A stretch of DNA of 64,000 nucleotides from Desulfobacteraceae bacterium (GTDB taxonomy: Bacteria; Desulfobacterota; Desulfobacteria; Desulfobacterales; SURF-7), in the NCBI GenBank assembly GCA_003599865.1, contig QZKS01000088.1, forward strand, positions 6,682 to 70,681, written 5' to 3'. Every line of letters starts with the position of its first letter. Position 1 is the stretch's first letter. Below are positions 37,528 to 54,582 of the stretch, piece after piece. Under the pieces are notes generated by a model, which was not told the origin of the DNA, ran no database searches, and saw only the letters and a list, made by a program, of their open reading frames with translations. The translations under genes were made by a program, and so were the position numbers.

Positions 37528-39111
37528 GTGAAATATTTAATTTTAAAAAGTGTAATCGTTTTTTTCTTGTTTCTTTTCATCCCGATGCAGGCAATGACAA
37601 ATTCTCCTACACAAATTGCCGTCATCCCCTTCACAGTCAATGCGGAAAAGAATTATGCATATTTGCAGAATGGGATAACGGAGACGCTTATCTTTCATTT
37701 GTCAAAAGAAGGAGAATCAAAAATAATTGATTCGGAAGCTGTTAATGAAGTAATGAAAGATATGAAAGGTCCTTTGACTGATACAAAAGCAGCACAGATT
37801 GGTCAGGAATTGAAGGCAGATTATATTGTTTACGGTAGTGTTACGGTTTTTGGCGACCAGGTCAATGTTCATGGAAAAGCGTTTGATGTAAAAAAGTTAC
37901 ACCCTCCTGTACGTTTGTCCAGGGAAATGTCTTCTATTGATGGAATCATTCCGGAGATCAAGGTGTTTGCAGGTGAAATTGAAAAAGCTATTGTATCAGC
38001 CACTTCTCACACCAATCAACCACAAGATGAGCTGGAAATCCAGGCGGAAAAAAAATCCGACTCCTCATCAGAGATTATTGTTCATCGTGAATCTCAGGTT
38101 CAGGGCATGACCGGTTTTTGGAGAAGCGAGCCTGTTGAAACACTGATTCACAGCCTGGGGGTTGGTGATATAGACAACGATGGTAAAAAAGAAATCCTTA
38201 TCCTTTCACCGCATACAATTGATCTCTATCGCATTCAACAGTCAAAGCTTGTAAAAGAAGAAAAAATTTATTCAGATGATGGCCATTATTTCATCAGTAT
38301 CGATATTGCGGATATCAATGGGAACGGTTTTCCGGAAATTTTTGTGACCAGCCTGAATGCACTTCAAAATACGGTCTCTTCTTTTGTGCTGGAATACAAA
38401 CAGGGAGTTTATATCCGAACTATGAAAGACCTTTCCTGGTATTTTAAAGTGATTGAGGGAAAACAGCTGATGGGTCAAAATCAGAGAACCGGTGGTTCGG
38501 ATATTTTCAGCGGTGCAATTGTGCGGATGGCTTGGAAGAACAACCGATATGAGCCGGCTGAACCGATTATGCCTGAACATTCAGCGAATCTCTTGGGTTT
38601 TGCGTACGGAAGATTCCTGAATACTAGTGAAAGTGTGGCAGTTGTTACGACCAAGGGCGGCTCATTGCAGATCATTGATTCTTCGGGAAATCGGTTTTGG
38701 TCAGGAAGTGAGTCTTATGCAACCCTCCCATTTTATTTCATACTTCCCAGGGAGGAACCGAGTGTTGAAAATCGGCAGTATTATCCGGCGCGGATCAAGA
38801 TCAACCCTACGGATGGAAGCAAAGAGATTATTGTTGCAAGGAATCCAAAATCCATCGGAGGAGCCTTGTTGAATTTCTTCAGTTCAAATGATCAATCTCA
38901 AATCGAGGCTCTTTACTGGGATGGAATCGGTTTTACGTCTAAATGGGAAACCAGGAAGATATCAGGAACCATAACTGATTTTATTATCGATGATGTTGAT
39001 CAGGATGGAAAAAACGAACTGGTTGTCAGCCTGATTTTGGAAACAGGCAACATTTTACGTCAACCCAAAAGTGTTCTATTTCTATATAATCTCGATGGGA
39101 TAAAAGAATAG
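37528..39111 (+). CDS. Secreted FG-GAP/VCBS-repeat protein with a TolB-N-like (IAVLPF-type) N-terminal domain, copy 1
   Basis: Signal peptide (MKYLILKSVIVFFLFLFIPMQA) followed by IAVIPFTVN...YIVYGSVTVFG. Three Ca-binding-like FG-GAP motifs are present: VGDIDNDGKKEILI, DIADINGNGFPEIFV and IDDVDQDGKNELVV. The GTG start lies 3 nt after the gatB stop, with GGGGGA upstream. Confidence 0.7.
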   Translation: MKYLILKSVIVFFLFLFIPMQAMTNSPTQIAVIPFTVNAEKNYAYLQNGITETLIFHLSKEGESKIIDSEAVNEVMKDMKGPLTDTKAAQIGQELKADYIVYGSVTVFGDQVNVHGKAFDVKKLHPPVRLSREMSSIDGIIPEIKVFAGEIEKAIVSATSHTNQPQDELEIQAEKKSDSSSEIIVHRESQVQGMTGFWRSEPVETLIHSLGVGDIDNDGKKEILILSPHTIDLYRIQQSKLVKEEKIYSDDGHYFISIDIADINGNGFPEIFVTSLNALQNTVSSFVLEYKQGVYIRTMKDLSWYFKVIEGKQLMGQNQRTGGSDIFSGAIVRMAWKNNRYEPAEPIMPEHSANLLGFAYGRFLNTSESVAVVTTKGGSLQIIDSSGNRFWSGSESYATLPFYFILPREEPSVENRQYYPARIKINPTDGSKEIIVARNPKSIGGALLNFFSSNDQSQIEALYWDGIGFTSKWETRKISGTITDFIIDDVDQDGKNELVVSLILETGNILRQPKSVLFLYNLDGIKE

Positions 39112-40788: not shown

Positions 40789-42363
40789 ATGAAAAAAATA
40801 GATCTGTCTCATATTTTGATAGCTATAGCAGTTTTATTAATTTATTTATGGATGTCGGATTTTCATGTGATTGCCGCGAACAGAAATAGAATCAAGGTTC
40901 TGCTGTTTCAAGTCAACTCGGAAAAGGACATGAAATATTTGCAGAAGGGACTTTCCGACATTTTGGAATCCAGACTGGCCGGTATCGAAAACGTGGAGAT
41001 CGTGGGGCCGGAAGCACAAACGGTTGTTCATATCCCTGGAGAACACGGTTATCATCCGGAGGAGATTCGCAAGGTCTATAAGGACGGGAATGTAGATTAT
41101 ATTGTTTGCGGGAGTCTTACCATCGTAGGAAACCATACGAGCCTGGATGCAAAGGTGATCGAGCTGTCGGGAACGAAAGGATTCTGGTCATTTTATCGAA
41201 ATGTGGATCATCTGGACGAAGTCATCCCGGCTGCTGAACAGATTGCAAAGGAAATTGAAGATACCGTATTTAAGGGGCTATCTCGGAATATAAAGACTTT
41301 TATTTCAACACAAAAAGATGATCTGAAGAGCCGGAAAGAAAAGAGAAATGATTATCATCTTCAAAGCCTTGAATTGCCGATTCAGGTCATCGGTCTTGGT
41401 GCCGGAGATGTTGATGGAGATGGAAGCATTGAAATTGTCGCGGCCTCCAATCATGATATTCATACATTCCGTTTCAAGGAAAACAGCCTTGTCGGCAGTG
41501 GAGACGTCAAGGGAGAAAAATATCACTCCTACCTGTCAATAGATGTTGCCGATATCAACAAAAATGGAAAGGCGGAGATTTATATTTCCGGTGAACATAC
41601 CGGATCAGGTTCTTTGACATCATTTGTCATGGAATGGAATGGAAAGCAGTTTTCTCCGATTATCCAGGATCAAAATTGGTATTTTCGTGTGATTCGTACG
41701 GAAAAAGGAAATCAGCTTCTCGGGCAGAAAAAGGGGATTTCCATGGCTTATATGTCTGGAATTTATAGACTTTTATGGGATGGCGAGGTATTGATACCGG
41801 CCAAACAGCAAGAAGCTTTTCCGGATGATACAATGGTTTTTGGGGTTTCAAAAGGATTTGCCGGGCAGAATGCAGATCTGACCGCAGCGTTTGATTCAAG
41901 TGACCGGCTTTCGATCATCCATGAAAATGGCAGCATTGCCTGGAAAAGTGATACTCCTTATGGCGGCAGCGAGCGTTTTATAAAGACGGTTGAAGATTAC
42001 CGTGACAGCGAAGGTGATCGGTTTTATCTGCCGCAACGAATCGTTGCTTTGGATTTTGAGAAAAAGCCGATGGTGATCATGCCGTCAAATGATTCCTCTT
42101 CCGGTCGGTTTTTTCAAAAATTCAGAAATTATACCAATGCACGGTTTTTGTTTTTCACCTGGGATGGTATGGGGCTTCTGTTAAGCCGAAAATCGCCGGA
42201 CCTGTCCGGTTATGTGAGTGATTTCTGTATCGCAGACGTAAATAACGATGGGTGGGAAGAATTGATTTATGCGCTTGTTACAGACAGAGAAACGGCTTTT
42301 CGCAGTGCGAAAAGTTATCTTGCGAGTGAGGCTTTATCCGGGTTGATCATACCACGTCCATAG
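40789..42363 (+). CDS. Secreted FG-GAP/VCBS-repeat protein with a TolB-N-like N-terminal domain, copy 2 (paralog of 37528-39111)
   Basis: Same architecture as copy 1: RIKVLLFQVN...DYIVCGSLTIVG, then AGDVDGDGSIEIVA, DVADINKNGKAEIYI and IADVNNDGWEELIYA. It also shares the NWYFRVI...QLLGQ block (SWYFKVI...QLMGQ in copy 1). Confidence 0.7.
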   Translation: MKKIDLSHILIAIAVLLIYLWMSDFHVIAANRNRIKVLLFQVNSEKDMKYLQKGLSDILESRLAGIENVEIVGPEAQTVVHIPGEHGYHPEEIRKVYKDGNVDYIVCGSLTIVGNHTSLDAKVIELSGTKGFWSFYRNVDHLDEVIPAAEQIAKEIEDTVFKGLSRNIKTFISTQKDDLKSRKEKRNDYHLQSLELPIQVIGLGAGDVDGDGSIEIVAASNHDIHTFRFKENSLVGSGDVKGEKYHSYLSIDVADINKNGKAEIYISGEHTGSGSLTSFVMEWNGKQFSPIIQDQNWYFRVIRTEKGNQLLGQKKGISMAYMSGIYRLLWDGEVLIPAKQQEAFPDDTMVFGVSKGFAGQNADLTAAFDSSDRLSIIHENGSIAWKSDTPYGGSERFIKTVEDYRDSEGDRFYLPQRIVALDFEKKPMVIMPSNDSSSGRFFQKFRNYTNARFLFFTWDGMGLLLSRKSPDLSGYVSDFCIADVNNDGWEELIYALVTDRETAFRSAKSYLASEALSGLIIPRP

Positions 42364-42407: not shown

Positions 42408-42699
42408 GCCGTCTATGATTATTTTGGATTTGCTGAAAATCATAACATGCCTGTCCCAAACATCAATAACGAAAAGTCATTATACAAATCATTAACATTT
42501 TGAGCCTGCAACAGCTTTCATAAAAACACGACTATGACATACTTTTTGATACATGATGTCTTATGAAATTTCAGCTATTATTACAATCGATGAATTTTAT
42601 GATGAAAGGAGGGATGCCGGGAACGTTTCAGTCTGATGATATTCACTGAATGGTTTAAGATTTATTATTAGTAATAACAGATATTTAAGGAGATGATTG

Positions 42700-44250
42700 A
42701 TGAAAAAAACAACCATATTACTGCTTACAATCTGTGTTTTGGTGATGACTGCCGGCACAGGTATGGCTGCGGAAGTTGATTTCAGCGGCGAGTACTATAT
42801 TGAAGGGATCTACAACTCCAATCCAAACCTGGCCAAAACAGATCTGGCAACCTATTACCGCCAGATGAGGCTCCGGGTTCAGACTGATTTTAAAGTGACC
42901 GAAGATTTAAAACTCACGACCCGGTTTGATGCGCTTGAAAAAGTATGGAATACGGATGACTCGGCCTTTACAAATAGTGAAGATGCGGAAAATATCGATT
43001 TTGACCGGGCATACATGACCATCATCAGCAAGGTCGGTATGTTTATGCTGGGGCGCCAGGAAGGGGTTACCTGGGGTACGACCTGGGCGGATGATGAGGA
43101 TGACACGGATCGCTTCAAGTGGGTGCTGCCTCTGGACGCTGCCGGCGGTAAATTGATTTTTGCATTGATTGCGGAAAAAACCACGGAGAATGATAAAACC
43201 AGGCAGGATGATAATCTTACTAATGATATAACCAGCGGAAAAGATAATGACAAGTATTACTTTGGAACGATTTATAAACGGGAAAGATATGATACCGGTC
43301 TGTTGCTGGGGCTCTATGATTTTAACCGGGTTCCGGACCCTGGTCAACGCAATGCAATCAATCAGTTTAGCGATGCCGGATATACTGCGAATGTGGCCGG
43401 ACTCACTGCTTATGGGGCGGTACTTCAGGGTTATGTAGCCGCTGTCATAGCAGATGGCGGAACACCAGGCGCAAATACACTTGCATACCTTGCGGCAAAC
43501 CCGGAAATAGCTACACTGGGTACTCCGACTACAGCGGGCAGCCCGATGAATACGCTGATCACCAGAGGAGGCGTTGGCGAGGCGCATGTTTATCTCTTAT
43601 CTCCCTATTTCCGCGGGAAATTCGATAAACTTGGTGTCCAGGCCGAACTTGATTATGTATTTGGAAAAGTGGAATATTCAGATGATGGATATGCCGTGCC
43701 AGACCATGATGTCAAGGCGTTTTCTTATTTTATGGAAGGCACCTATGATGTGGGTCCGTTGGTTTTCCAGGCAGGATGGGCACACCGTTCCGGTGATGGC
43801 AATGAAGCCGATACGGATGAAAAAGGCATGGGATATTTTTCACCGGGTCTGGATTGGGAAAAAATGCTTATCCTGTCTTCCGATTACCACGGCTTGAATA
43901 CCACTATGGCCGGGATTGGAAACCATGTGGGCGATGGATTTATAACTTTTTCAAGACCGCTTCTGGATGGTTTCCGGATGCCTTACATCGGAGCTGATTA
44001 TTCCGTAAGAGATGACATCACTATCGGCCTTCTGGCAGCCATGTCTACAGCAGACGATACGGTTACCGGCTGGGATGATGACCAGGGCGTTGAAGTGGAT
44101 CTTAAGTTTACCTGGCAACTCATGGATAACCTGGAATACCAGGCAACCTTTGCCTATCTGTCTGCAGGAGATTACTGGAAACAGGGTAATGCGGCTGCGG
44201 ATTTAGATGATCTTTATTGTGTTTTCAGCCGGCTGACCATGACATTCTAA
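42700..44250 (+). CDS. Outer-membrane beta-barrel protein (porin-like, large)
   Basis: Signal peptide (MKKTTILLLTICVLVMTAGTGMA-AE), Asp/Gly/Tyr-rich alternating strands, and a C-terminal ...SRLTMTF ending in Phe. The ATG at 42700 follows AAGGAGA plus 6 nt. Confidence 0.65.
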   Translation: MKKTTILLLTICVLVMTAGTGMAAEVDFSGEYYIEGIYNSNPNLAKTDLATYYRQMRLRVQTDFKVTEDLKLTTRFDALEKVWNTDDSAFTNSEDAENIDFDRAYMTIISKVGMFMLGRQEGVTWGTTWADDEDDTDRFKWVLPLDAAGGKLIFALIAEKTTENDKTRQDDNLTNDITSGKDNDKYYFGTIYKRERYDTGLLLGLYDFNRVPDPGQRNAINQFSDAGYTANVAGLTAYGAVLQGYVAAVIADGGTPGANTLAYLAANPEIATLGTPTTAGSPMNTLITRGGVGEAHVYLLSPYFRGKFDKLGVQAELDYVFGKVEYSDDGYAVPDHDVKAFSYFMEGTYDVGPLVFQAGWAHRSGDGNEADTDEKGMGYFSPGLDWEKMLILSSDYHGLNTTMAGIGNHVGDGFITFSRPLLDGFRMPYIGADYSVRDDITIGLLAAMSTADDTVTGWDDDQGVEVDLKFTWQLMDNLEYQATFAYLSAGDYWKQGNAAADLDDLYCVFSRLTMTF

Positions 44251-44274: not shown

Positions 44275-44308
44275 AAGAATCCCCCCTTGATTTCAAGGGG
44301 GGATTCTT
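44275..44308. terminator. Bidirectional terminator hairpin
   Basis: Near-perfect 16-bp inverted repeat AAGAATCCCCCCTTGA / TCAAGGGGGGATTCTT between convergent genes. Confidence 0.7.
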
Positions 44309-44340: not shown

Positions 44341-45117
44341 TCAGGTAATCATATTCTGAATCCGCATCATGAAATCCCCGACATCGCGACCATATTCGGG
44401 TGATCCTTCTACCCGGAGATATTCATTTTTCACGGCCGTCACCATATCCACCTCATTCAGGATTACCGGGAGTGCACCGTCAATGCCATTGAACCGCATA
44501 TGAACAAAGGGGCGCCTCTTTTTGTAAAAACCTCTTCCCGCTTTTGTTTTTCCGGCTTTGACCCTTAGGTATGCGGCGATGTCCTCGTTGTCCACGGACA
44601 TCTGATAAATCCGTTCCGGCTGTTTGGATGTCCAGCGGACCATTTCCGGATCGCCGCCCTTGTTGTACTGGCTGAGGGCAGTGGTAATCATATAAATTGT
44701 CATTTTAATTTTCAGTCTTTTTTTATCCTCTGCGGTTGGTTTTGCATTGGGCATGAGAATTTTTAAGCTCAGGAGCAGGCTGAACATTTTGATCAGCAAT
44801 CTGATTTTCAGAAACCCTTTTATACGCGGAATCACCGGTTTGCCGGCCAGCATGTCATTCATTTTCTTGACACTTCCAAATCCAAAACGAATATCCGGAC
44901 TGGGGCAGATACCCTGGATGATTTCCAGATTTCCTTTCTGAAAGTCCAGATATGCTCCCACTTCTCCGGAACCGTTTTGAGCGGCAAACTGGATTTTTGC
45001 GGTAACATCCTGGAAGCGGTTTTTCATTTTTTGAACATCAGAAAGAACAACCTTCATTACCGGAAACAAAGCCTGCAAGAATAATCGTGCTGCGAGCAAA
45101 TCTCTTTCAGTTGTCAT
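44341..45117 (-). CDS. SCP2-like hypothetical protein, copy B (last gene of the operon)
   Basis: Paralog of 48367-49128, sharing IQF..., P.P.I.F.F.S and IP.IKGF.KI blocks. The C-terminal ...LRVEGSPEYGRDVGDFMMRI resembles an SCP2 sterol-binding tail. The ATG at 45117 lies 1 nt after the transketolase-C stop. Confidence 0.5.
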   Translation of the reverse strand: MTTERDLLAARLFLQALFPVMKVVLSDVQKMKNRFQDVTAKIQFAAQNGSGEVGAYLDFQKGNLEIIQGICPSPDIRFGFGSVKKMNDMLAGKPVIPRIKGFLKIRLLIKMFSLLLSLKILMPNAKPTAEDKKRLKIKMTIYMITTALSQYNKGGDPEMVRWTSKQPERIYQMSVDNEDIAAYLRVKAGKTKAGRGFYKKRRPFVHMRFNGIDGALPVILNEVDMVTAVKNEYLRVEGSPEYGRDVGDFMMRIQNMIT

Positions 45118-45118
45118 G

Positions 45119-46129
45119 TTATACCTCATCTTCCCAGTCGTCATCCTCTTCAAAATCCATGTTCATGACTTCCCGGACCTTGTCAATAATTCCATCCGTA
45201 TCCAGCTTATAGTGGCTGCAAAGATCTTCCGGATACCCGACGATGCAGTAGCAGTCGGGAATGCCGACCTTGACAAAGGCACAACCTTTTCCACTTGCAG
45301 CAATAACATCGGCAACAGCGCTTCCAAGCCCTCCCAGCACCGTATGATCTTCAAAGGTGATGATCCTTCTCGTGTCCGTTACGGCCGCCAGAACGGCTTC
45401 TTCATCCAGCGGTTTGATGGTATGCATGTTCAGTACCCGCACGCTCAGACCATCATTTTCCTTGAGAAATTTTGCTGCCTCGGCAGCCTGCAAAACGGTA
45501 ACACCGCAGCAGATCAGGGTGATATCGGTTCCTTCATTTACCTCAATGGCTTTTCCAATCTGGAAATCATAGTCTTCGTTTTCATAAAATTTGGGTTCAA
45601 ATCCCCTTCCGATGCGGATATACACCGGCCCGGGGTAGTCGACGCAGGCTTTTACAGCCTTTGCAGTCTCAATTCCATCAGCCGGAGCGATCACGGTCAT
45701 GTTGGCGAAAGATCGCATGATCGCAAGATCTTCCGTACAATGGTGGGTGGTGCCGGCCGAACCAAATGAGGTGCCGGCGTGGGTGGCGATAATCTTGCAG
45801 TTCAGATTCTGATAGCAGATATCCGTGCGAACCTGCTCCACTCCTCGCATGGCAGTGAAGGCTGCCATTGTTGAGACAAAGGGGATCAGACCGGTTTTGG
45901 CAAGGCCGGCGGAAACACCAAAAAGATTTTGTTCGGCAATCCCGACATTGAAAAAACGATCCGGAAATTTTTTGCCGAATTTTCCGATTTTAGTGGAGTT
46001 GGCCAGATCCGCCGACAGGCCGACTATTTTTGGATTTTCTTCTCCTAACCGGCAAAGAACTTCTCCATAGATTTCCGCCTGGGTCATTGTATCGGCATCA
46101 TAGACCGTCCATGTTAAGCCTTCCGTCAT
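45119..46129 (-). CDS. Transketolase family protein, C-terminal (pyrimidine-binding) subunit
   Basis: 336 aa containing FFNVGIAEQN, GTSFGSAGTTHH and the C-terminal regulatory domain. It is a split-transketolase type. Confidence 0.85.
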   Translation of the reverse strand: MTEGLTWTVYDADTMTQAEIYGEVLCRLGEENPKIVGLSADLANSTKIGKFGKKFPDRFFNVGIAEQNLFGVSAGLAKTGLIPFVSTMAAFTAMRGVEQVRTDICYQNLNCKIIATHAGTSFGSAGTTHHCTEDLAIMRSFANMTVIAPADGIETAKAVKACVDYPGPVYIRIGRGFEPKFYENEDYDFQIGKAIEVNEGTDITLICCGVTVLQAAEAAKFLKENDGLSVRVLNMHTIKPLDEEAVLAAVTDTRRIITFEDHTVLGGLGSAVADVIAASGKGCAFVKVGIPDCYCIVGYPEDLCSHYKLDTDGIIDKVREVMNMDFEEDDDWEDEV

Positions 46130-46162
46130 TGTGCCCTCCTCTTTTTATTTTTGAGCGTGCCG

Positions 46163-47020
46163 CTAATTTTTGAGGTTCATTGCCTGTTCAGCCATCCGGT
46201 CTACAGATGCTTTTGCTTTTTCAACCAGCTCCGTATCCAGACCTCCGTAATGCCATTTTACTTGGTTTTCCATGAAATCGATCCCCTTGCCTTTAACCGT
46301 ATTGGCGATTATGACAACCGGGCCTTTTTTTTCGCTTTGGGCGTATTCGATAGCAGCAGACAACTCGGAAAAGCTATGTCCATCAACTTCTTTCACAATA
46401 AAACCAAAAGCTTTCCATTTGTCCGCAAAAGGCTCAAGACCCATGACCTCCTCTGTCGGTCCGTCAATCATCAGTTTATTCCGGTCCACAAAAGTGATGA
46501 GGTTGGTCAGTTTAAACTGGGAGGCAGCCATGGCCGCTTCCCAGATGGAACCTTCATTGCATTCGCCATCCCCTAAAATACAGTAGGTGAGCCAGGATTG
46601 TTTTTGTACCCTGGCGCCTAACGCCATCCCGACAGCCATGGGAAGACCATGACCCAGGGAGCCGGTGGAAGCATCCACGCCTTTTACCTTCAGGCTGTCC
46701 AGATGCATTCCAAAAGGAGATTTGAATTTGTTGAATTCTTTCAGGTCCTGAAAGTCAAAATAGCCTTTGCGGGCCAGCAGCGGAGCGTATCCCACACCAC
46801 CATGGCCTTTACTGAGAACCATCCGGTCTCTGTCTTTCCAGGTCGGATTTTTCGGATCAATATTCATATACTTGTAATAAAGGAGGATCAACATTTCGAC
46901 CATACTCAACGCACCACCAATATGTGCCCCCCCTGCCCAATATGTGATATCGATAATATCCTTCCGCAGCTGGCATGCCTTTTCATGTAATAATCGGATT
47001 TCCTGATCTGTAACCGGCAT
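46163..47020 (-). CDS. Transketolase family protein, N-terminal (ThDP-binding) subunit
   Basis: 285 aa containing GGHIGGALS, SKGHG and the ThDP motif GDGECNEGSIWEA...N. Confidence 0.85.
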   Translation of the reverse strand: MPVTDQEIRLLHEKACQLRKDIIDITYWAGGAHIGGALSMVEMLILLYYKYMNIDPKNPTWKDRDRMVLSKGHGGVGYAPLLARKGYFDFQDLKEFNKFKSPFGMHLDSLKVKGVDASTGSLGHGLPMAVGMALGARVQKQSWLTYCILGDGECNEGSIWEAAMAASQFKLTNLITFVDRNKLMIDGPTEEVMGLEPFADKWKAFGFIVKEVDGHSFSELSAAIEYAQSEKKGPVVIIANTVKGKGIDFMENQVKWHYGGLDTELVEKAKASVDRMAEQAMNLKN

Positions 47021-47061
47021 TTTTTCCTCCTGTTGTGACGGGATTGTTCACCATTATCTTC

Positions 47062-48312
47062 CTAAAAGCGATCACCATATTGCTGTTTGATGATTTGAAA
47101 TGCATCATCCGCAATTTCGAGCGTTTGTTGGATATCTTCATCGGTATGGGCTGTTGAAACAAACCAGTTATGATGGGATGTAAAATAGGCCCCTCTTCCG
47201 GTACACTCCGCACACCAGTCCTGATGCAGCATGAGGCTTTCATCATTGGTAATGCGAAGATAGGGCATGGAAGGGGCGCCGGTAACCTTCAAATCATATC
47301 CATAGGTTTTGGCAACCTTAACCAGCCCATCCAGAAGCTTTTTCCCTGTTGCCAGAATTTTTTTTGGTCCATCGATTCTTTTGAGCTCTTTCAGGGTCTC
47401 AAGGGCGGCTGCCATGGGTTCTGCCTGGAACCAGTAGCTTCCCGTGTAAAAAACACGCGCCGTAACATCCTTGAGCGCCTGGCTGCCCATCAGAGCGGAA
47501 ATCGGATATCCGTTTGCAAGCGCCTTGCAGAAGCAGATCAGATCCGGTGTGAAGCCGAAATATTCGCAGGATCCTCCGATATCCATCCGAAAACCGTGGC
47601 GGATGTCATCGACAATAAGAACGATTCCATGTTTTCGGCAAAGAGCCTCGATTTTTTTCCAATATCCCTCATCCGGCATTTCATTGTCCGCAAAGACAGG
47701 AACATGATAAGGGGTTGCAATAAAACCAGCGATATCATTTGGATTGTTCTCTATGGCTTTTTCAAATGCAGGAACATCATTCCAGGGTATCCGGATGATG
47801 TTTTCCGCATCCTCCTCAATGGTTCCATGGTGTCCCGGCGCCTGCATCCAGGAAGACGCGCCGTGGTAGCCGCCTTTGATCATGACAATTTTTTTTCTTC
47901 CGGTGGCATCCCTGGCAATCATGGTTGAATAATTGGTCACATCCGCGCCGTTTTTGGCAAAAAACACCCAATCTGCTGCCGGAATTAAATCCACCATAAA
48001 CTCTGCCAGCTCAACCATGACGCTTGGCGCTCCAGTGGTGCAATTGGATGATTGAATCTGCTTTGCCGCAGCCTGATCGACAAGCGGATGATTATATCCT
48101 AAAATCATGGGGCCGTAGGCACACATATAATCAATGAACTCATTTCCATCCACATCCCAGAACCTGGCACCGGCAGATCTTGCCGTATAAAATGGATAGG
48201 ATGTTGCCGGAACAAGAGGGGCGGGGCTGAAATGCCCATAGATACCGCATGGAATGACCTTTGCTGCCCGTTTAAACAATTCCTGTGATTTTGTAAATTG
48301 GTATGTTTTCAT
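47062..48312 (-). CDS. Class-III (omega-type) aminotransferase, glutamate-1-semialdehyde aminomutase-like
   Basis: Fold-type I class III pattern with GGYHG, VDDIRHGFR and the PLP-Lys context FCKALANGYP. The ATG at 48312 follows GAGGGA plus 8 nt; the ORF opens at 48363. Confidence 0.8.
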   Translation of the reverse strand: MKTYQFTKSQELFKRAAKVIPCGIYGHFSPAPLVPATSYPFYTARSAGARFWDVDGNEFIDYMCAYGPMILGYNHPLVDQAAAKQIQSSNCTTGAPSVMVELAEFMVDLIPAADWVFFAKNGADVTNYSTMIARDATGRKKIVMIKGGYHGASSWMQAPGHHGTIEEDAENIIRIPWNDVPAFEKAIENNPNDIAGFIATPYHVPVFADNEMPDEGYWKKIEALCRKHGIVLIVDDIRHGFRMDIGGSCEYFGFTPDLICFCKALANGYPISALMGSQALKDVTARVFYTGSYWFQAEPMAAALETLKELKRIDGPKKILATGKKLLDGLVKVAKTYGYDLKVTGAPSMPYLRITNDESLMLHQDWCAECTGRGAYFTSHHNWFVSTAHTDEDIQQTLEIADDAFQIIKQQYGDRF

Positions 48313-48366
48313 AAACAGTTCCCTCACATGTTTTCCGATAGGAATTCCCGCCATCGGTCCCATGTT

Positions 48367-49128
48367 CTATCCCAGATAAAGCGGTATTCTGTCCAGTACC
48401 AGACCCATGGAATCCAGCATGGGGGTTTGTCCTTTAATCATCACATCTCCGGAAGCAATCGCAGTGAATGCATCCAGTTTGGCATTCAGAAAAGCATTTG
48501 CGACTTGCATATTTTTCATATAGAGGCAGGCCATCGGCCTTTCCGTCTCGCCGGAAACCGGTGTGATATTGCCGTTCCGGACCCGGAGGGTTACTGCCGG
48601 CCCGTCCGGCAGAATCTTCATGAGAATATCACCGTTTTGAATATGGGAGACAGCATGTATTCCAACCCGGTCCAGGCTTCCGATTTCCGGTATGGCATGA
48701 GCTGCCGTGTTCAGTGTAAATCGGGTATTGAGTTCGCAGTAGGTTGTATCCTTCAAGAGTTCATCGGTCGGCTTGAGATAATATTCCAGCTTTTTGGTCA
48801 GTTTTTGAAAGTCGCCGTTCAGGAAAGGTATTTTGGTAAACCCTTTTAATGGAATCGGAAATCCCCGGCCGTCCATCATCCGGTTTAAATGGGCTGGAGA
48901 GAAAAAAAACAGAATGATTGTCGGTTTGGGAAGTTTGCCCTGTCCTACCCGGCATTTTCCGTTTTGAAATTCGATAAATGCCTTGGGTCCGAGCAGTATG
49001 GAAAACTGGATGGATATATTCCACTGTTTTGACAGGGCGGCCATTTCCGGATCATATTGAACAAGATCTTCGAGGTTTTTCAGCACAGCACAGAGGTTGA
49101 GTCGGGCTTTAATCAGTTCATGACCCAT
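48367..49128 (-). CDS. SCP2-like hypothetical protein, copy A (first gene of the operon)
   Basis: 253 aa. The C-terminal FLNAKLDAFTAIASGDVMIKGQTPMLDSMGLVLDRI resembles the SCP2 sterol-carrier tail. It is a paralog of 44341-45117. Confidence 0.5.
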   Translation of the reverse strand: MGHELIKARLNLCAVLKNLEDLVQYDPEMAALSKQWNISIQFSILLGPKAFIEFQNGKCRVGQGKLPKPTIILFFFSPAHLNRMMDGRGFPIPLKGFTKIPFLNGDFQKLTKKLEYYLKPTDELLKDTTYCELNTRFTLNTAAHAIPEIGSLDRVGIHAVSHIQNGDILMKILPDGPAVTLRVRNGNITPVSGETERPMACLYMKNMQVANAFLNAKLDAFTAIASGDVMIKGQTPMLDSMGLVLDRIPLYLG

Positions 49129-49180: not shown

Positions 49181-49196
49181 GAGTGATCGCTCACTC
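49181..49196. promoter_or_regulatory. Candidate TetR operator (inverted repeat) in the divergent intergenic region
   Basis: GAGTGA-TCGC-TCACTC is a perfect 6-bp-arm palindrome. It lies 53 bp upstream of the operon's first gene, and a minus-strand TTGACA (49209-49204) sits 7 bp away. Confidence 0.35.
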
Positions 49197-49410
49197 TATT
49201 GGGTGTCAATAAATCAAAACAGCCTTTAAAAGTCAAGTGGAATTTGTCCGACGAGAAGCACAGGACTTAACCATCGACACCCCTGATGTTTGTAAACAAA
49301 TGGGTTGTTTTTTACGATAGTTGACAGAAAACCAGGATGAAACGTCATTTCAATCCATCTGGAAAAAAATAAGCAACGTGTCTTCAGATGAATACGTGCC
49401 AAGGAGCAAG

Positions 49411-50118
49411 ATGAAAAAACAGTTCGAACTGAATTCAAACCAAGGAATTACAAAGCAGAAACATTATAAAGAGGCGTTTCAAAAAATTTCTCCGGAAAAA
49501 CGGGAAAAAATTCATACTGTGGCGGCTGGAGAATTTGCAAAGCACGGACTAAAGGCTGCGAATATTAATATCATCGCCAAAAAGGCCGGGGTCAGTATCG
49601 GGTCCATGTATAATTATTTTAATTCCAAGGAAGATCTGTTTTTAACGGTTATGGATTACGGCTATCAGGTGCTGGAACAGGTGATTTCGGAAATCGATCT
49701 TGAAAAAGGTGATATTTTTGATAAAATTGAGAGACTCTTACGGGCGGCCCAGAAGTATACAAAGGAATATCCGGAGCTGAATCAGATCTATCTGGATATT
49801 ACCTCCCAGGGGCTTTCCCATCTTTCGACATTGCTTTCCCGCAAGATGGAGACGATCTCGGCACAATTTTATCGCTCCATGCTTACAGAGTCCAAAAAAT
49901 CGGGAACCATTGATCCGGATATCGACGAACATATAGCCTCTTTTTGTTTGGATAATTTGATCCTTTTATTGCAATATTCTTATACAACCGATTATTTCCG
50001 GGAACGCATGAAGATATTTGCCGGCGAAAATACGGCGGATAATGATGAAAAAATAATTCAGGGCATGATGCACTTTATACGGAACGCACTTTCTTCTCAT
50101 CCCAAGATAATAAAATAA
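49411..50118 (+). CDS. TetR/AcrR family transcriptional regulator
   Basis: The HTH region is GLKAANINIIAKKAGVSIGSMYNYFNSKEDLF. The ATG at 49411 follows AAGGAG plus 4 nt; the ORF track opens with TTG at 49321. Confidence 0.85.
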   Translation: MKKQFELNSNQGITKQKHYKEAFQKISPEKREKIHTVAAGEFAKHGLKAANINIIAKKAGVSIGSMYNYFNSKEDLFLTVMDYGYQVLEQVISEIDLEKGDIFDKIERLLRAAQKYTKEYPELNQIYLDITSQGLSHLSTLLSRKMETISAQFYRSMLTESKKSGTIDPDIDEHIASFCLDNLILLLQYSYTTDYFRERMKIFAGENTADNDEKIIQGMMHFIRNALSSHPKIIK

Positions 50119-50158: not shown

Positions 50159-51265
50159 ATGAAAATCGGGGTGCCAAAAGAGATAAAAATCAAGGAAAAC
50201 AGGGTTTCATTAACACCAGCCGGGGTCGCGGCGCTTGTGGATGGCGGGCATACGGTTTATGTGGAAAAAGGAGCCGGACAGGGTTCCGGGATCATGGATG
50301 AAACGTATGTCAAGACCGGTGCTGTTATGCTGAATACACCGGAAGCGGTTTGGGCGGAAGCGGATATGATCATTAAGGTGAAAGAACCCATAGAACCGGA
50401 ATTGGGTTTAATGAAGGAAGGTCAGATTCTGTTTACCTATTTGCATCTGGCCGCTGATCAGAAACTAACCCAGTGGCTGCTGGGTAAAAAAGTGATCGGG
50501 ATTGCCTATGAAACCATTCAGCTGGAAAATGGATCTCTTCCCCTGCTCGCTCCCATGAGTGCCGTTGCCGGAAGGCTTTCCGTACAAATGGGCTGTGCCT
50601 GCCTGGAAGTTAAAAACGGCGGAAAGGGACTTCTGGTATCCGGGGTCCCGGGTGTTGCACCTGCCCGTGTAACCATTGTCGGCGGAGGCATATCCGGGAT
50701 TAATGCAGCTCAAGTTGCCATTGGCATGGGTGCCCGGGTGACCATTCTCGATATCAATCAGGAGAGACTCCGTTATCTGGACCATCTCTTTTATTCACAA
50801 GCTGTGACCTTGATGTCCAATCCCGTGAATCTGGAACAAAGTATTCTCAGTGCGGATCTGGTGATCGGCGCGGTGCTGATACCGGGAGCCAAAGCACCCA
50901 AACTGATCAAGAAAGAGTATCTGAAAAAAATGGAGCCGGGTTCTGCGCTGGTGGATATTGCCATCGATCAGGGTGGATGTGCGGAGACAAGCAGGCCCAC
51001 AACCCATGATGATCCAATATATATTATTGATAATATTGTACACTATTGTGTTGCCAATATGCCCGGGGCTGTTCCGCGTACATCAACCTATGCCTTGACC
51101 AATGCAACTTTTCCTTATGTCCTTGCGCTGGCAAACAAGGGATTGAAGAAAGCCCTTACGGAAAATACCGCATTGAAAAGGGGCCTGAACGTTTACAAAG
51201 GTCAATTAACCTGTGAAGAAGTCGCGAATGCCTTTGGGATGAAGTCCGCAGCAATCAGTTTATAA
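50159..51265 (+). CDS. ald: Alanine dehydrogenase
   Basis: Starts [20 protein letters not shown] and has the NAD motif [12 protein letters not shown]. It is Ald-like throughout and begins 40 nt after the TetR gene. Confidence 0.92.
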
Positions 51266-53654
51266 TGCTGCTTCTCCGGATGATTTCATCTTTCATTTTG
51301 GGAGACAGATCGTTGAAATAAGCGGAATAACCGGAAACCCGGACAAGAAGATGGGGATACAGATCCGGATTGTTCTTGGCGGCCAGTAACATGGAAGGGT
51401 CAAGGACATTCACCTGAACCTGCATGCCGCCTTTTCGGAAATAGGTTGACAGCACACTTTTCAAGGCAAGTTTTCCGGTTGGTCCACGGAGCGTATGGCT
51501 GTCAAACTTCAGGTTAAAATTGACACCGTTGGCGATTTTGGAAAAATCAATTCGATTCACCGAATTGATGAGAGCCGTTGGCCCAAGCCTGTCCATTCCA
51601 TTGGATGGAGAAATCCCGGAGGAAAAGCTTTCTCCTTTTTTTCTGCCGTTGGGAAGAGCACCGGTAACTCTTCCATAATATTCATGGATGGTAACCGAGT
51701 AAAGACCCGGAACATAACGGCCGCCTCGGGTATTCCGGTATTGGTTCAATTGCCGTGTAAATTGCTCCACCACATAAACCGTCCATTTGTCTGCATCCGG
51801 TTGGTCATTACCGAATTTTTCAATGGCTTTTAAATAATTCCGGAGGGAATTGTCCGGCAGGTTGAGGCTGAGTTGTTTCACCAGCGCGGGGAGGGTGATT
51901 TTTTGATCGGTAAATACCGCTTTTTCAATGGCAAAAAGGGAGTCGCCGGTATCTGCCGGAGCCACACATTGAATACCGGAAAAGTTGTAACGGGCTCCTC
52001 CTGCCGTAGAGCAAATCCCGTTTTCCAGACACCCCTCCAGAAGAGAGCTGGTAAGGGGGGTTGGATGATATTTTCGATTGGCCGTTTCAATGGCCTGAAG
52101 ATCTTTGATCAGCCGGGATACCTGATCGGCAAGCTGGATTTCAAAAGCGGTTTTTACATCCTCCATGGACCGCATGTTTTTGACGGGCATGCTTTTGGCT
52201 CCGGACCGGAACCGGGAACCGAACCGTCTGCCCTGGTTGAGCGCCAGCTCCAGAATCAGCGGTACATTCAACAGCGCGGCATCGGTTGATGAAAAGCTTT
52301 TTCCCTGTGCCACGGGTTCAACACACCCCACGCCGGTATAATCCCTTGCATCTTCGATGGAATATCCGTGATGAACCATGGTATCCACAATAACCGTATC
52401 ATTATACAAGGCCGGGGAATTGCTGCCGTTGGCCAGCATGGTATGGATTTTTTCCAGATATTGTTCAGGGGATTTGTCTGAAATCCGCGCATGATAATTG
52501 GGTTGCCGCATTCGCAGTTCATCCATGATTTCCAGAAAAACATAGGTCAGTTCATTGGTTCCGTCTGTTCCATCCGGTCGCAATCCCCCTACCGTAACCA
52601 CCTGACCGTTGAACATGCCCCCATGAATATTGGTGAGGTATTCTGAAAAAACAGGTATGATTTCAGACATTTTAATGGAAAATGCCGAGAGGAGTTCCTT
52701 GGCTTTATCCCGAGTGATTTGCTTGCGCTGCAAATCGGCTTCATAAAAAGGATACAGATACTGGTCCATCCTTCCCGGGCACACCGAGTTATCCAGACTT
52801 TCCAGGTTAATGGCAATCTGGGCAAAAAAGAGGGACTGGACAGCTTCCTGAAAGGATGAGGCGCCTTTTTGGGGCACATTTCTACAGGTTTGGGCTATCG
52901 TGAATAATTCCTGTTTTCGACCGGCATCGGATTCAGCACTTGCCATTTTTTCAGCAAGATGCGCATAGCGTTGTCCGAACTTTGCAAGTGCATCTGCAAT
53001 GATTTTCACCGCCTCATAAAAACACCATTTTTCCGTTCCCTGGATTGAATTTTTCTGAAATCCGGAGGCCTCGGCAAGGATTCCATCCGTGCCGATGGAG
53101 ATCAGTTTTTCATAATCCGGAGCAATGTGGGAGATTCCGCCTGACTCGTTAATGATATAGAAATGGCCTTTCAGCTGATGAATCAGCAGCCGGATGAGTT
53201 GATAGGGGGAGCGGTAAGCCTTGAGAGCCATAAATCGGAACATCCAGAATGGAATGATTTTCAACAGATTCCAGATTTCAATGCCGGAAATCCGGAGCGG
53301 ATTGGTTTTTCGTTTGGAGAATTTGAAAATATCCAGCAATACGGGAACGCCATGAAGCTCAGGAAAAATGGACCCGCCGACTCTTTTGGAGGAATAATTG
53401 CCGACAATCAGTTCGTCAGGGTAGATGCGGATTTTTTTGTTCAGCAATACCTCACGCAAGGATTCCGCCATCTGAATATGGGCGGACTTTTTGCGGTTAT
53501 CCGATTGTTTGTGGTAGGCTGTCCAGATGCAGGCCCGATCCGTACAGATCCCGGGAGAGGCTGTCTGTACGGAATTTTTCAAGCGCATCACCCGCGATGG
53601 TTTTTTTTCTTCGGTTACCGGTCTTCCCAGGTGATCAGTCGTAAAGAACAGCAT
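51255..53654 (-). CDS. Glycyl radical enzyme (PFL2/eliminase-type, specificity unassigned)
   Basis: The C-terminal glycyl-radical motif is LLVRVSGYSAYFNDL and the thiyl loop is GVGCVEP (Cys-x-Glu). The ATG at 53654 follows AAGGAGGA plus 5 nt; the ORF opens at 53672. Confidence 0.9.
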   Translation of the reverse strand: MLFFTTDHLGRPVTEEKKPSRVMRLKNSVQTASPGICTDRACIWTAYHKQSDNRKKSAHIQMAESLREVLLNKKIRIYPDELIVGNYSSKRVGGSIFPELHGVPVLLDIFKFSKRKTNPLRISGIEIWNLLKIIPFWMFRFMALKAYRSPYQLIRLLIHQLKGHFYIINESGGISHIAPDYEKLISIGTDGILAEASGFQKNSIQGTEKWCFYEAVKIIADALAKFGQRYAHLAEKMASAESDAGRKQELFTIAQTCRNVPQKGASSFQEAVQSLFFAQIAINLESLDNSVCPGRMDQYLYPFYEADLQRKQITRDKAKELLSAFSIKMSEIIPVFSEYLTNIHGGMFNGQVVTVGGLRPDGTDGTNELTYVFLEIMDELRMRQPNYHARISDKSPEQYLEKIHTMLANGSNSPALYNDTVIVDTMVHHGYSIEDARDYTGVGCVEPVAQGKSFSSTDAALLNVPLILELALNQGRRFGSRFRSGAKSMPVKNMRSMEDVKTAFEIQLADQVSRLIKDLQAIETANRKYHPTPLTSSLLEGCLENGICSTAGGARYNFSGIQCVAPADTGDSLFAIEKAVFTDQKITLPALVKQLSLNLPDNSLRNYLKAIEKFGNDQPDADKWTVYVVEQFTRQLNQYRNTRGGRYVPGLYSVTIHEYYGRVTGALPNGRKKGESFSSGISPSNGMDRLGPTALINSVNRIDFSKIANGVNFNLKFDSHTLRGPTGKLALKSVLSTYFRKGGMQVQVNVLDPSMLLAAKNNPDLYPHLLVRVSGYSAYFNDLSPKMKDEIIRRSSIIN

Positions 53655-54582
53655 GGATTTCCTCCTTTTCAAACAATTCTTGGATTTCTTGAAGATTTTT
53701 CAGATCCAGAGGCGTGATATTCATGGGGCGTAAGGATGTATCGATTCGGTTCAGCTTGGCCTCGCCCAGCGGATGATACGGAAGCAAATGGATGCTTTCC
53801 TGCTGATTCTTCTTCAGGAAGCGGGCTGTTTCCCGGATATTATCGGGCGCGGTATTGACACCCGGGATAACCGGCATTCTCGCCTGAACAGCCATTCCGC
53901 TTTTCGATAACCAGATGAAATTATCCAGTATGTTGGCATTCCCTTTTCCGGTAAACTGTTTGTGGATGGAATCATTCATATGTTTGAGGTCATAGAACAC
54001 AAGATCAAGCAAGGGAAGCAGTTTTTCGATATTGGTCCAGGACATCATACCACAGGTCTGGATGGTCGTATGAATATGTTTCTCCCGTATCATGGGAAGC
54101 CAGGCCAGCAGAAAATCCGTTTGAAGAAGCGGTTCTCCGCCGGAAAGGGTAATGCCTCCATTGGAGTCCTGAAAAAAGGCGATGTCCTTTACGACTTCAT
54201 TCGTAAGATCCGTTAGGCCCCATTCCTTTCCCACCAGTCGGAGACTGTTTGTAGGACATTTGGAAACGCAAAGGCCGCATGCCGTGCATCTTTCAGGATC
54301 AAATCGAAGGGCCAGAGTTTCAGAGATGGCATTTTCCGGACAGATTTGTTTACAGGTGAAGCAATGGATACAGCTTTCTGCATAGAAAATCAGTTCCGGT
54401 TGCGCGCGATGGGATTCCGGGTTTTGACACCATACACAGGATAACGGGCAGCCCTTGAAAAAACAGGTTGTGCGAATTCCCGGTCCATCATGAAGGCAAA
54501 ACCGCTGAATATCAAAAATGACGGCCTTTTCTCCGGGATAATGCAAGTTACCATCCTTTTCCATCATGGGAATGTTATGCAT
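53635..54582 (-). CDS. Glycyl-radical enzyme activating protein (radical SAM with two auxiliary ferredoxin-like clusters)
   Basis: Contains CPLSCVWCQN (CxxxCxxC), CIHCFTCKQICP and CTACGLCVSKCP. Its stop overlaps the start of the glycyl radical enzyme gene. Confidence 0.9.
   Translation of the reverse strand: MHNIPMMEKDGNLHYPGEKAVIFDIQRFCLHDGPGIRTTCFFKGCPLSCVWCQNPESHRAQPELIFYAESCIHCFTCKQICPENAISETLALRFDPERCTACGLCVSKCPTNSLRLVGKEWGLTDLTNEVVKDIAFFQDSNGGITLSGGEPLLQTDFLLAWLPMIREKHIHTTIQTCGMMSWTNIEKLLPLLDLVFYDLKHMNDSIHKQFTGKGNANILDNFIWLSKSGMAVQARMPVIPGVNTAPDNIRETARFLKKNQQESIHLLPYHPLGEAKLNRIDTSLRPMNITPLDLKNLQEIQELFEKEEIHAVLYD

Follow-up and report, generated by a model that had tools for sequence, protein, structure and literature searches.

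A conserved five-gene module encoding tandem SCP2-like proteins, a FumI-like aminotransferase and a split transketolase in a Desulfobacteraceae bacterium

Five co-directional open reading frames (ORFs) occupy positions 44341-49128 on the minus strand of the window, the whole 64,000-nucleotide stretch of Desulfobacteraceae DNA analyzed here, in agreement with the five-gene operon described in the initial annotation. Their order is A-AT-TktN-TktC-B. The features of the region are as follows.

44282..44303, no strand: GC-rich hairpin CCCCCCTTGAaatcAAGGGGGG, a terminator-like site between the convergent porin gene and B
44341..45117, minus strand: gene B, last gene of the operon, 258 aa, tandem double-SCP2 protein and paralogue of A; ATG 1 nt past the TktC stop codon
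45119..46129, minus strand: TktC, C-terminal (Pyr + C domain) chain of a split transketolase, 336 aa; Pfam Transket_pyr and Transketolase_C
46163..47020, minus strand: TktN, N-terminal (ThDP/PP-domain) chain of a split transketolase, 285 aa; Pfam Transketolase_N, 157 bits
47062..48312, minus strand: AT, class-III (FumI/HemL-like) aminotransferase, 416 aa; Pfam Aminotran_3, 152 bits
48367..49128, minus strand: gene A, first gene of the operon, 253 aa, tandem double-SCP2 protein; GGAGG ribosome-binding site before the ATG of the ORF
49181..49196, no strand: palindrome GAGTGA-N4-TCACTC in the A/TetR intergenic region, read from the sequence
49231..49236, minus strand: TTGACT, candidate -35 element of the operon promoter, conserved among intergenic regions
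49321..50118, plus strand: TetR-family regulator, divergent from the operon; NCBIfam TetR-family matches
50159..51265, plus strand: alanine dehydrogenase (Ald); TIGR00518 alaDH, 519 bits (cut-off 392)

The ATG at 48312 was taken as the start of AT, since a GAGGG ribosome-binding site precedes it by 8 nt and the resulting length agrees with that of AT orthologues (412-418 aa). Direct reading of the TktC/B junction gave TAA-c-ATG (45121-45115), and with this AT start the remaining intergenic gaps are 54, 41, and 33 nt; the tight gene junctions noted earlier are thus accurate. The hairpin beyond B is likely a bidirectional terminator, in a region where terminator-like sites are no more numerous than in shuffled sequence. 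The palindrome upstream of A is kept in six related loci together with the upstream TTGACT, and alignment of the six intergenic regions showed an invariant CTTGACTTTT block around the latter. The palindrome is a probable operator for the TetR regulator. The true start of the TetR gene is probably the ATG near 49411, and its orthologues are 206-230 aa long. A porin gene as well as genes for a glycyl radical enzyme and its activase also adjoin the operon in the window.

Comparison of 65 loci, of which 55 have enough downstream sequence to be informative for the full gene order, indicated that the bracketing of the enzyme genes by A and B is conserved in both related and distant genomes. The order A-AT-TktN-TktC-B was found in 43 of the 55 loci, and the hosts span at least six phyla, including Desulfobacterota, Spirochaetota, Bacteroidota, and Myxococcota. 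Among them are Desulfatibacillum and Desulfosudis oleivorans, which are known degraders of fatty acids and alkanes. The flanking genes are more variable. The TetR gene (within 3 kb of A or just past B in 26 of the 65 loci) and Ald (16 of the 65, including Desulfosudis oleivorans and Desulfatibacillum genomes) each accompany the cassette in a minority of loci, and no further consistently conserved neighbor gene was found across the loci, so the module appears to be self-contained. In the Desulfoluna loci a gene for an NSS-type sodium-dependent transporter lies a few kb upstream, and locus L014 has one immediately upstream of A; an aldehyde dehydrogenase gene lies directly 3' of B in Draconibacterium. 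Partial forms of the cassette also occur. A and AT are present without the transketolase and B in 9 loci, while locus L090 has AT-Ald-TK-B without A, adjoining a quinohemoprotein amine dehydrogenase. From these two forms we infer that A pairs with AT and B with the transketolase. In locus L037, the genes on either side of A-AT encode a fused E1 and a ThDP enzyme resembling acetolactate synthase. No published description of the A-AT-TktN-TktC-B module was found in the literature.

Proteins A (48370-49128) and B (44344-45117) are paralogous. BLASTP aligned them over their full length with 25% identity across 253 residues (E = 4e-9), and profile-profile comparison of the two families gave a probability of 98.4% and E = 5e-15 over 241 columns. 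The motifs on which homology was initially proposed align exactly, with GRGFPIPLKGFTKIPFL paired with GKPVIPRIKGFLKIRLL, IQFSILLG with IQFAAQNG, and the two C-terminal tails with each other. The AlphaFold models (pLDDT of 93 for A and 92 for B) each contain two tandem SCP2-like halves. Each half of A is predicted as helix/4-strand/helix/strand/helix, and B has the same two-half architecture; the SCP2 α/β pattern (N-terminal helices, five-stranded sheet, C-terminal helices) occurs twice in each modeled protein. Foldseek searches of the PDB with both models retrieved only SCP2-fold proteins at E ≤ 1e-3, and hhalign aligned the N-terminal half of A with its C-terminal half (E = 4e-8). A and B therefore share a tandemly duplicated SCP2 fold. 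The SCP2 likeness first seen in the tails holds, but its restriction to the tails does not, since both halves are SCP2-like.

The α/β fold of A and B is common to SCP2, MFE-2 SCP2L, UbiJ, and the C-terminal domain of alkylsulfatase, with which approximately 110 residues align at target-normalized TM-scores of ~0.6. UbiJ and the alkylsulfatase domain present hydrophobic substrates to enzymes, and a like role may be proposed for A and B. Unlike the known SCP2 domains, A and B stand alone as ~255-aa proteins in which two SCP2 halves are fused, and they form a tight family of their own. Their sequence similarity to Pfam SCP2 (PF02036) is marginal for A (28.0 bits, cut-off 21.3) and absent for B, which has no Pfam match itself, while several B orthologues carry a precomputed PF02036 match. 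The family comprises 743 representatives, nearly all of 250-270 aa, and no fusions were found among the best 150. A and B retain 55-70% identity between phyla, with many invariant polar residues. Alternatively, A and B may be structural subunits of a complex, which would fit both this unusually high conservation and the separate pairing of A with AT and of B with the transketolase.

The closest solved relative of AT is the aminopentol aminotransferase FumI (PDB 6HBS), which matches over the full length with 39% identity and E = 1e-96. Glutamate-1-semialdehyde aminomutases are more distant (E ~1e-54; bit scores of at most 187 compared with 327 for FumI). AT has the class-III fold, and the PLP-binding lysine of the C(F/W)xK motif is aligned with that of 6HBS. 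FumI acts on a long-chain sphinganine analogue of the 2-amino-3-hydroxy type, yielding the 2-ketone, with pyruvate as its preferred co-substrate (PMC3136697). This preference fits the linkage of alanine dehydrogenase to AT. The 39% identity does not fix the substrate of AT, because the FumI family, with at least 5,995 matches, is very large and turns up in unrelated settings too, e.g. in Variovorax beside amidases and peptide ABC transporters. In the fum cluster of Sphingopyxis, a TetR regulator and a ThDP-dependent enzyme adjoin FumI, in parallel to the module in the window. However, that cluster lacks SCP2 proteins and a transketolase, its ThDP enzyme is acetolactate-synthase-like, and its hosts are aerobic Alphaproteobacteria rather than anaerobes. 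The cluster also includes a FumD esterase, tricarballylate genes, and a TonB receptor, none of which lies near the operon in the window. The FumD carboxylesterase and tricarballylate-utilization genes are present in the Sphingopyxis locus (L087) and absent from both the neighborhood in the window and the cassette neighbors across loci.

The best PDB matches of TktN and TktC are 6YAK (the N chain of a split transketolase) and 6YAJ, respectively. This split transketolase of Carboxydothermus hydrogenoformans is the nearest structural relative of both chains (E ~1e-80) and shares the two-chain architecture, the ThDP/metal motif, and the catalytic histidines. The motif is GDGECNEG in the window, the cofactor-activating residues are present, and the equivalents of H26, H66, H100, H261, H461, and H473 (E. 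coli numbering) are conserved in the 37 operon-linked homologues, except that one aberrant ORF (L014) departs at H461/H473. The canonical sugar-phosphate channel (R358, S385, H461, R520, and D469, with the partner R91) is altered. S385, H461, and R520 are kept, whereas R91 is replaced by Asn and D469 by Ala in 37 of 37 homologues, and R358 is replaced by Ala, Ser, or Asn across the family (Ala in TktC of the window). Human TKT and the C. hydrogenoformans enzyme have Arg, Arg, and Asp at the R91, R358, and D469 positions. Because the three residues are replaced family-wide, TktN/TktC, although a member of the transketolase family, is probably no pentose-phosphate transketolase. Mutations of E. 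coli transketolase at these sites shift its preference toward non-phosphorylated, non-polar aldehydes (PMC7661550; PMC5073344).

The initial annotation suggested a hydrophobic substrate from the presence of the carrier-like proteins, and the two enzymes lend this independent support: AT is nearest to an enzyme acting on a long-chain 2-amino-3-ol, and the transketolase has lost residues that bind sugar phosphates and hydroxyls. Our leading but tentative reading is that the operon is a self-contained module for the catabolism of a hydrophobic 2-amino-alcohol, with a sphingoid-type long-chain base (2-amino-1,3-diol) as the lead candidate. AT would pass the C2 amino group to pyruvate to give alanine and a 1,3-dihydroxy-2-ketone (a lipid “ketose”), and the adjoining alanine dehydrogenase would regenerate pyruvate. 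The split transketolase would then cut the C2–C3 bond, releasing a fatty aldehyde and leaving a C2 glycolaldehyde unit on ThDP, to be handed to an acceptor that may still be a sugar phosphate. The water-insoluble substrate and product would be held by the tandem-SCP2 proteins, A for AT and B for the transketolase, acting as chaperones or tightly bound subunits. Expression would be controlled by the divergent TetR repressor at the conserved palindrome.

Some observations speak against sphingoid catabolism. The conservation of A and B far exceeds what is usual for passive lipid carriers, and the NSS-type transporter near the cassette in Desulfoluna and L014 hints at a soluble amine. Moreover, canonical transketolases need a 3S ketol, while the natural D-erythro sphingoid bases would yield the 3R ketol, which calls for a different stereospecificity or a different substrate. 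The same observations would suit a small polar amine (an aminopolyol, ethanolamine, serinol, or an aminosulfonate) as the substrate, with A and B serving not as lipid carriers but as structural or regulatory subunits, or as enzymes with an SCP2 scaffold, for example a ketol isomerase or epimerase. The invariant polar residues of A and B and the porin gene in the window are in line with this idea, and a catalytic epimerase would settle the stereochemical problem. We nevertheless regard it as unlikely: all structural matches of A and B are lipid-binding SCP2 domains, a C20 lipid is the substrate of the enzyme nearest to AT, and neither the transporter nor the porin is a conserved neighbor across loci. 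The transketolase lacks the acceptor-hydroxyl-binding Asp and a phosphate-binding Arg, and this loss speaks against a partner on that side that is a polyol or carries phosphate.

The canonical 3S stereochemistry would also suit operation of the module in the biosynthetic direction, in which the transketolase adds a C2 ketol to a fatty aldehyde and AT aminates the product with alanine from alanine dehydrogenase, giving a sphingoid-like amino-diol lipid whose intermediates are held by the SCP2 proteins. Both reactions are reversible in principle, synthetic transketolase-transaminase cascades yield 2-amino-1,3-diols, and the module is found in Bacteroidota and Myxococcota, both of which produce unusual lipids. 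Yet a divergent TetR repressor, or a Crp-type regulator as in Bacteroidota, is seen more typically with inducible catabolic genes, the closest characterized aminotransferase (FumI) is catabolic, L090 has an amine dehydrogenase beside the module, the gene after B in L054 encodes an aldehyde dehydrogenase, and no acyltransferase or lipid-assembly genes are conserved near the loci; biosynthesis therefore seems quite improbable. A further alternative is that the cassette, together with the adjoining Ald and glycyl radical enzyme, serves an organosulfonate/taurine-type pathway, as the Ald, glycyl radical enzyme, and activase genes beside the operon in the window resemble the Tpa-Ald-IslAB arrangement of taurine degraders. 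This already disfavored explanation is very hard to sustain. Apart from the window, just two loci, the close relatives L008 and L009, have the glycyl radical enzyme with the cassette, and the enzyme is closest to PFL2 (513 bits) and glycerol dehydratase (475 bits) rather than to isethionate sulfite-lyase (292 bits) and reaches no NCBIfam equivalog cut-off.

Sphingolipids are plentiful in sediments, digesters, and guts, and to our knowledge the disposal of sphingoid bases by bacteria is largely unknown. Pseudomonas aeruginosa removes sphingoid bases by means of sphBCD, although the chemistry and product of its sphingosine metabolism are still unidentified (PMC11398299). These genes encode a periplasmic oxidoreductase, a cytochrome c, and a PLP-dependent aldolase, with no aminotransferase, transketolase, or SCP2 protein among them, and none was seen to be homologous to the genes in the window. 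It is possible, though rather doubtful, that the cassette represents a hitherto unrecognized, widespread, and mainly anaerobic route of sphingoid-base degradation, in which tandem-SCP2 lipid shuttles link the membrane to a FumI-like transaminase and a naturally remodeled R91N/R358A/D469A transketolase, and cleavage of the lipid “ketose” gives a fatty aldehyde and a C2 unit that enters sugar-phosphate metabolism. If so, this route would be the natural equivalent of the transketolase-transaminase cascade used in synthesis, and the conserved cassette would offer a directly testable pathway for the flow of sphingolipid carbon and nitrogen. Biocatalysis would also gain a naturally occurring transketolase that is already suited to aliphatic aldehydes, which is of interest because directed evolution has targeted the same positions, and relatives of FumI are of applied interest in mycotoxin detoxification. 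A and B would then constitute a new family of tandem-SCP2 enzyme partners.

Five open reading frames lie in the same direction on the minus strand between positions 49128 and 44341 of the window.

Genes of the operon, in order of transcription.
49128-48367, minus strand: A, 253 aa; Pfam SCP2, 28 bits (cut-off 21.3)
48312-47062, minus strand: AT, class-III aminotransferase, 416 aa; Pfam Aminotran_3
47020-46163, minus strand: TktN, transketolase chain; Pfam Transketolase_N
46129-45119, minus strand: TktC, transketolase chain; Pfam Transket_pyr and Transketolase_C
45117-44341, minus strand: B, 258 aa; no domain assigned in the Pfam scan

The start of AT was placed at the ATG at 48312, which is preceded by a GAGGG ribosome-binding site and agrees with the lengths of the orthologues. 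The gene junctions are as tight as the initial annotation had described: TktC and B are joined by TAA-c-ATG, as read directly, and the other three junctions span 54, 41 and 33 nt. Downstream of B lies a GC-rich hairpin. Upstream of the operon and divergent from it are the genes of a TetR regulator and an alanine dehydrogenase, the latter scoring above its equivalog cut-off. The intergenic region between the TetR gene and the operon contains a palindrome, GAGTGA-N4-TCACTC (49196-49181), downstream of a conserved TTGACT, and both elements (49181-49236) are common to six related loci. The 6+6 palindrome was recognized by eye and from the alignment; a repeat tool found no inverted repeats of at least 12 nt in the promoter region. 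The TTGACT and the palindrome are probably a promoter and a TetR operator, respectively. Elsewhere in the window, a paralogous pair of proteins of ~525 aa with FG-GAP repeats and a TolB_N-like N-terminus (37528-39111 and 40789-42363) is encoded upstream of the gene for a Porin_4 outer-membrane protein (42697-44250).

The first and last genes of the operon had been proposed to encode homologous proteins, and BLASTP aligned A with B over the full length at 25% identity (E = 4e-9), with the previously quoted motifs paired in the alignment. Comparison of the two family profiles gave a probability of 98.4% and E = 5e-15 over 241 columns. The homologue search returned 382 matches for the A family and 891 for the B family, nearly all of 250-260 aa and 55-90% identical; they are annotated at source as "SCP2 domain-containing" or "hypothetical". 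AlphaFold models built on the family alignments (pLDDT 93.1 for A and 92.3 for B) display the same order of elements twice: three helices, four strands, a helix, a strand and helices. The SCP2-like fold suggested from the sequence was borne out by Foldseek, in which both models matched only SCP2-fold proteins in the PDB at E ≤ 1e-3, including SCP2, the SCP2-like domain of MFE-2, UbiJ and the C-terminal domain of alkylsulfatase, with alignments of ~110 residues and target-normalised TM-scores near 0.6. Sequence searches of A and B against the PDB gave nothing meaningful, and matches to the vitamin D receptor (E about 0.007) were judged to be due to chance. The N-terminal half of A matched its own C-terminal half in hhalign (E = 4e-8), and A therefore consists of an internally duplicated SCP2 domain. 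A combined A and B profile retrieved 743 relatives from 1.84 billion representative proteins (165 at E ≤ 1e-30), almost all of which are stand-alone proteins of 250-270 aa; the best 150 representatives include no fusion to an enzyme. Therefore, the paralogy, fold, internal duplication and stand-alone nature of the family confirm and sharpen the initial observation: the operon encodes two paralogous tandem proteins with four SCP2 domains between them. In B (44344-45117), a strongly hydrophobic helix, LLIKMFSLLLSLKILMP, is located at about residues 105-121, where the two SCP2 halves join, and a polar block, YMITTALSQYNKGGDPEM..WT..QPERIYQ, is nearly invariant. The helix could be a membrane-dipping element and the block an enzyme-contact surface.

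To examine the arrangement in other organisms, one genome per species was scanned, yielding 292 loci with a relative of A, and the proteins of the window were mapped onto 86 fetched loci. The bracketed order A-AT-TktN-TktC-B is kept in 43 of the 55 loci whose sequence continues for 4.7 kb or more downstream of A; nine of these 55 have A-AT alone. TetR and alanine dehydrogenase genes are nearby in 26 and 16, respectively, of the 65 loci having enough upstream sequence. The hosts belong to Desulfobacterota (including genomes of Desulfosudis oleivorans and Desulfatibacillum), Spirochaetota and Leptospirales, Bacteroidota, Myxococcota, Hydrogenedentota and others. Among 126 surrounding ORFs, predicted with a crude ORF caller that produced antisense artefacts in high-GC loci, a Pfam scan revealed no further family consistently linked to the cassette; it returned Crp-type regulators in 7 loci (Bacteroidota) and a few aldehyde dehydrogenases and glyoxalases. 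In Draconibacterium, an aldehyde dehydrogenase gene directly follows B.

Loci with A-AT and neither transketolase nor B are mostly from Spirochaetes. Conversely, the locus designated as L090 (3569-14373) has no A and reads TetR-AT-alanine dehydrogenase-(class-IV aminotransferase)-TktN-TktC-B, with B immediately followed by quinohemoprotein amine dehydrogenase subunits and their radical-SAM maturase. A thus pairs with the aminotransferase and B with the transketolase, and this distribution suggests corresponding functional partnerships. In the loci with A-AT alone, the next gene specifies a conserved protein of ~477 aa that carries a C-terminal hydrophobic segment and matches nothing in Pfam or NCBIfam (L026, 10564-12072; also six further loci, for the most part Spirochaetota). 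This protein might substitute for the transketolase step. In a Nitrospiraceae locus (L061, 8567-10762), a lone A-like double-SCP2 gene is divergent from a thiolase gene and is accompanied by neither aminotransferase nor transketolase, an arrangement that recalls SCPx-type thiolase plus SCP2.

The best solved relative of AT is FumI, the aminopentol aminotransferase of Sphingopyxis (6HBS; E = 1e-96, 327 bits, 39% identity across 406 residues), whereas glutamate-1-semialdehyde aminomutases scored at most 187 bits. [quoted passage not shown] A pyruvate-dependent transaminase would explain the linkage to alanine dehydrogenase. In Sphingopyxis granuli, the fum locus combines FumI with a TetR regulator, a ThDP enzyme resembling acetolactate synthase and a zinc alcohol dehydrogenase, and, unlike the cassette, has no SCP2 protein. 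L037 (4277-11741), a locus lacking both transketolase and B, encodes a ThDP enzyme on either side of A-AT: before it, a fused E1 alpha-beta protein of 844 aa; after it, one resembling acetolactate synthase / 2-hydroxyacyl-CoA lyase, together with a zinc alcohol dehydrogenase. At 30% identity, orthology of the L037 and fum ThDP enzymes cannot be claimed, so the parallel is one of analogy. By that analogy, the recurring logic is a transaminase that would yield an alpha-hydroxy-ketone and a ThDP enzyme that could then cleave beside the carbonyl. A conserved Xsc-like ThDP gene was also considered and rejected; apart from that of L037, the ThDP cluster near some loci consists of heterogeneous acetolactate synthases.

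The transketolase most resembles the split enzyme of Carboxydothermus hydrogenoformans and keeps the ThDP/metal motif, all catalytic histidines, S385, H461 and R520 (E. coli numbering). Among 37 operon-linked homologues, R91 is replaced by Asn and D469 by Ala in all 37, and R358 by Ala, rarely Ser or Asn, while the C. hydrogenoformans and human enzymes retain Arg, Arg and Asp at R91, R358 and D469. In E. coli transketolase, D469 is salt-bridged to R91, and mutations of R358, S385, D469 and R520 shift the enzyme from phosphorylated sugars toward non-polar aldehydes (PMC7661550; PMC5073344). In the light of these mutants, the pocket replacements make the protein look like a natural transketolase for an aldehyde without phosphate and without alpha-hydroxyl, i.e. 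an alkyl aldehyde. With S385, H461 and R520 kept, there would still be room for a phosphorylated second substrate.

We propose that the cassette may be a module that breaks down hydrophobic 2-amino-1,3-diols; the leading, if tentative, candidates are sphingoid bases. The amine would be transaminated onto pyruvate to give a lipid ketol, and pyruvate would be restored by alanine dehydrogenase. The transketolase would then cut C2-C3, releasing a fatty aldehyde and passing the glycolaldehyde unit to an acceptor, while A and B would each hold the insoluble substrate or product for their own enzyme. A TetR repressor would act at the conserved palindrome. We infer the substrate, direction, lipid binding and partnerships from facts established at the level of sequence and structure. 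Several points count against this proposal: FumI-like enzymes form a very large family found in unrelated gene contexts, and canonical transketolases require a 3S ketol, while D-erythro sphingoid bases would yield 3R. Furthermore, A and B are more conserved and have more invariant polar residues than is usual for passive carriers; they may be tightly bound subunits or even have a catalytic role. In addition, some loci have a sodium-dependent transporter nearby, a hint that the amine could be a soluble one.

A small polar amine as the substrate, with A and B as non-carrier SCP2 proteins, appears unlikely. Operation of the same module in the biosynthetic direction is a still slimmer prospect. 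Adjoining the alanine dehydrogenase gene, the minus strand at 51258-54582 encodes a glycyl radical enzyme (805 aa) and its activase; the radical enzyme most resembles Archaeoglobus PFL2 (2F3O, 513 bits) and B12-independent glycerol dehydratase and reached no NCBIfam equivalog cut-off. This neighbourhood would suit a taurine or organosulfonate pathway, but the enzyme is unlike isethionate sulfite-lyase and is not conserved with the cassette, being found with it, beyond the window, only in the close relatives L008 and L009. This pathway was rejected as highly improbable.

Full-text literature searches found no paper describing the cassette, and bacterial sphingoid-base metabolism is still unresolved, including in Pseudomonas (PMC11398299). 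The parts come from known superfamilies, namely SCP2, class-III aminotransferases and split transketolases. New are the family of tandem-SCP2 proteins, the transketolase subfamily whose pocket is remodelled, and the fixed combination of these.
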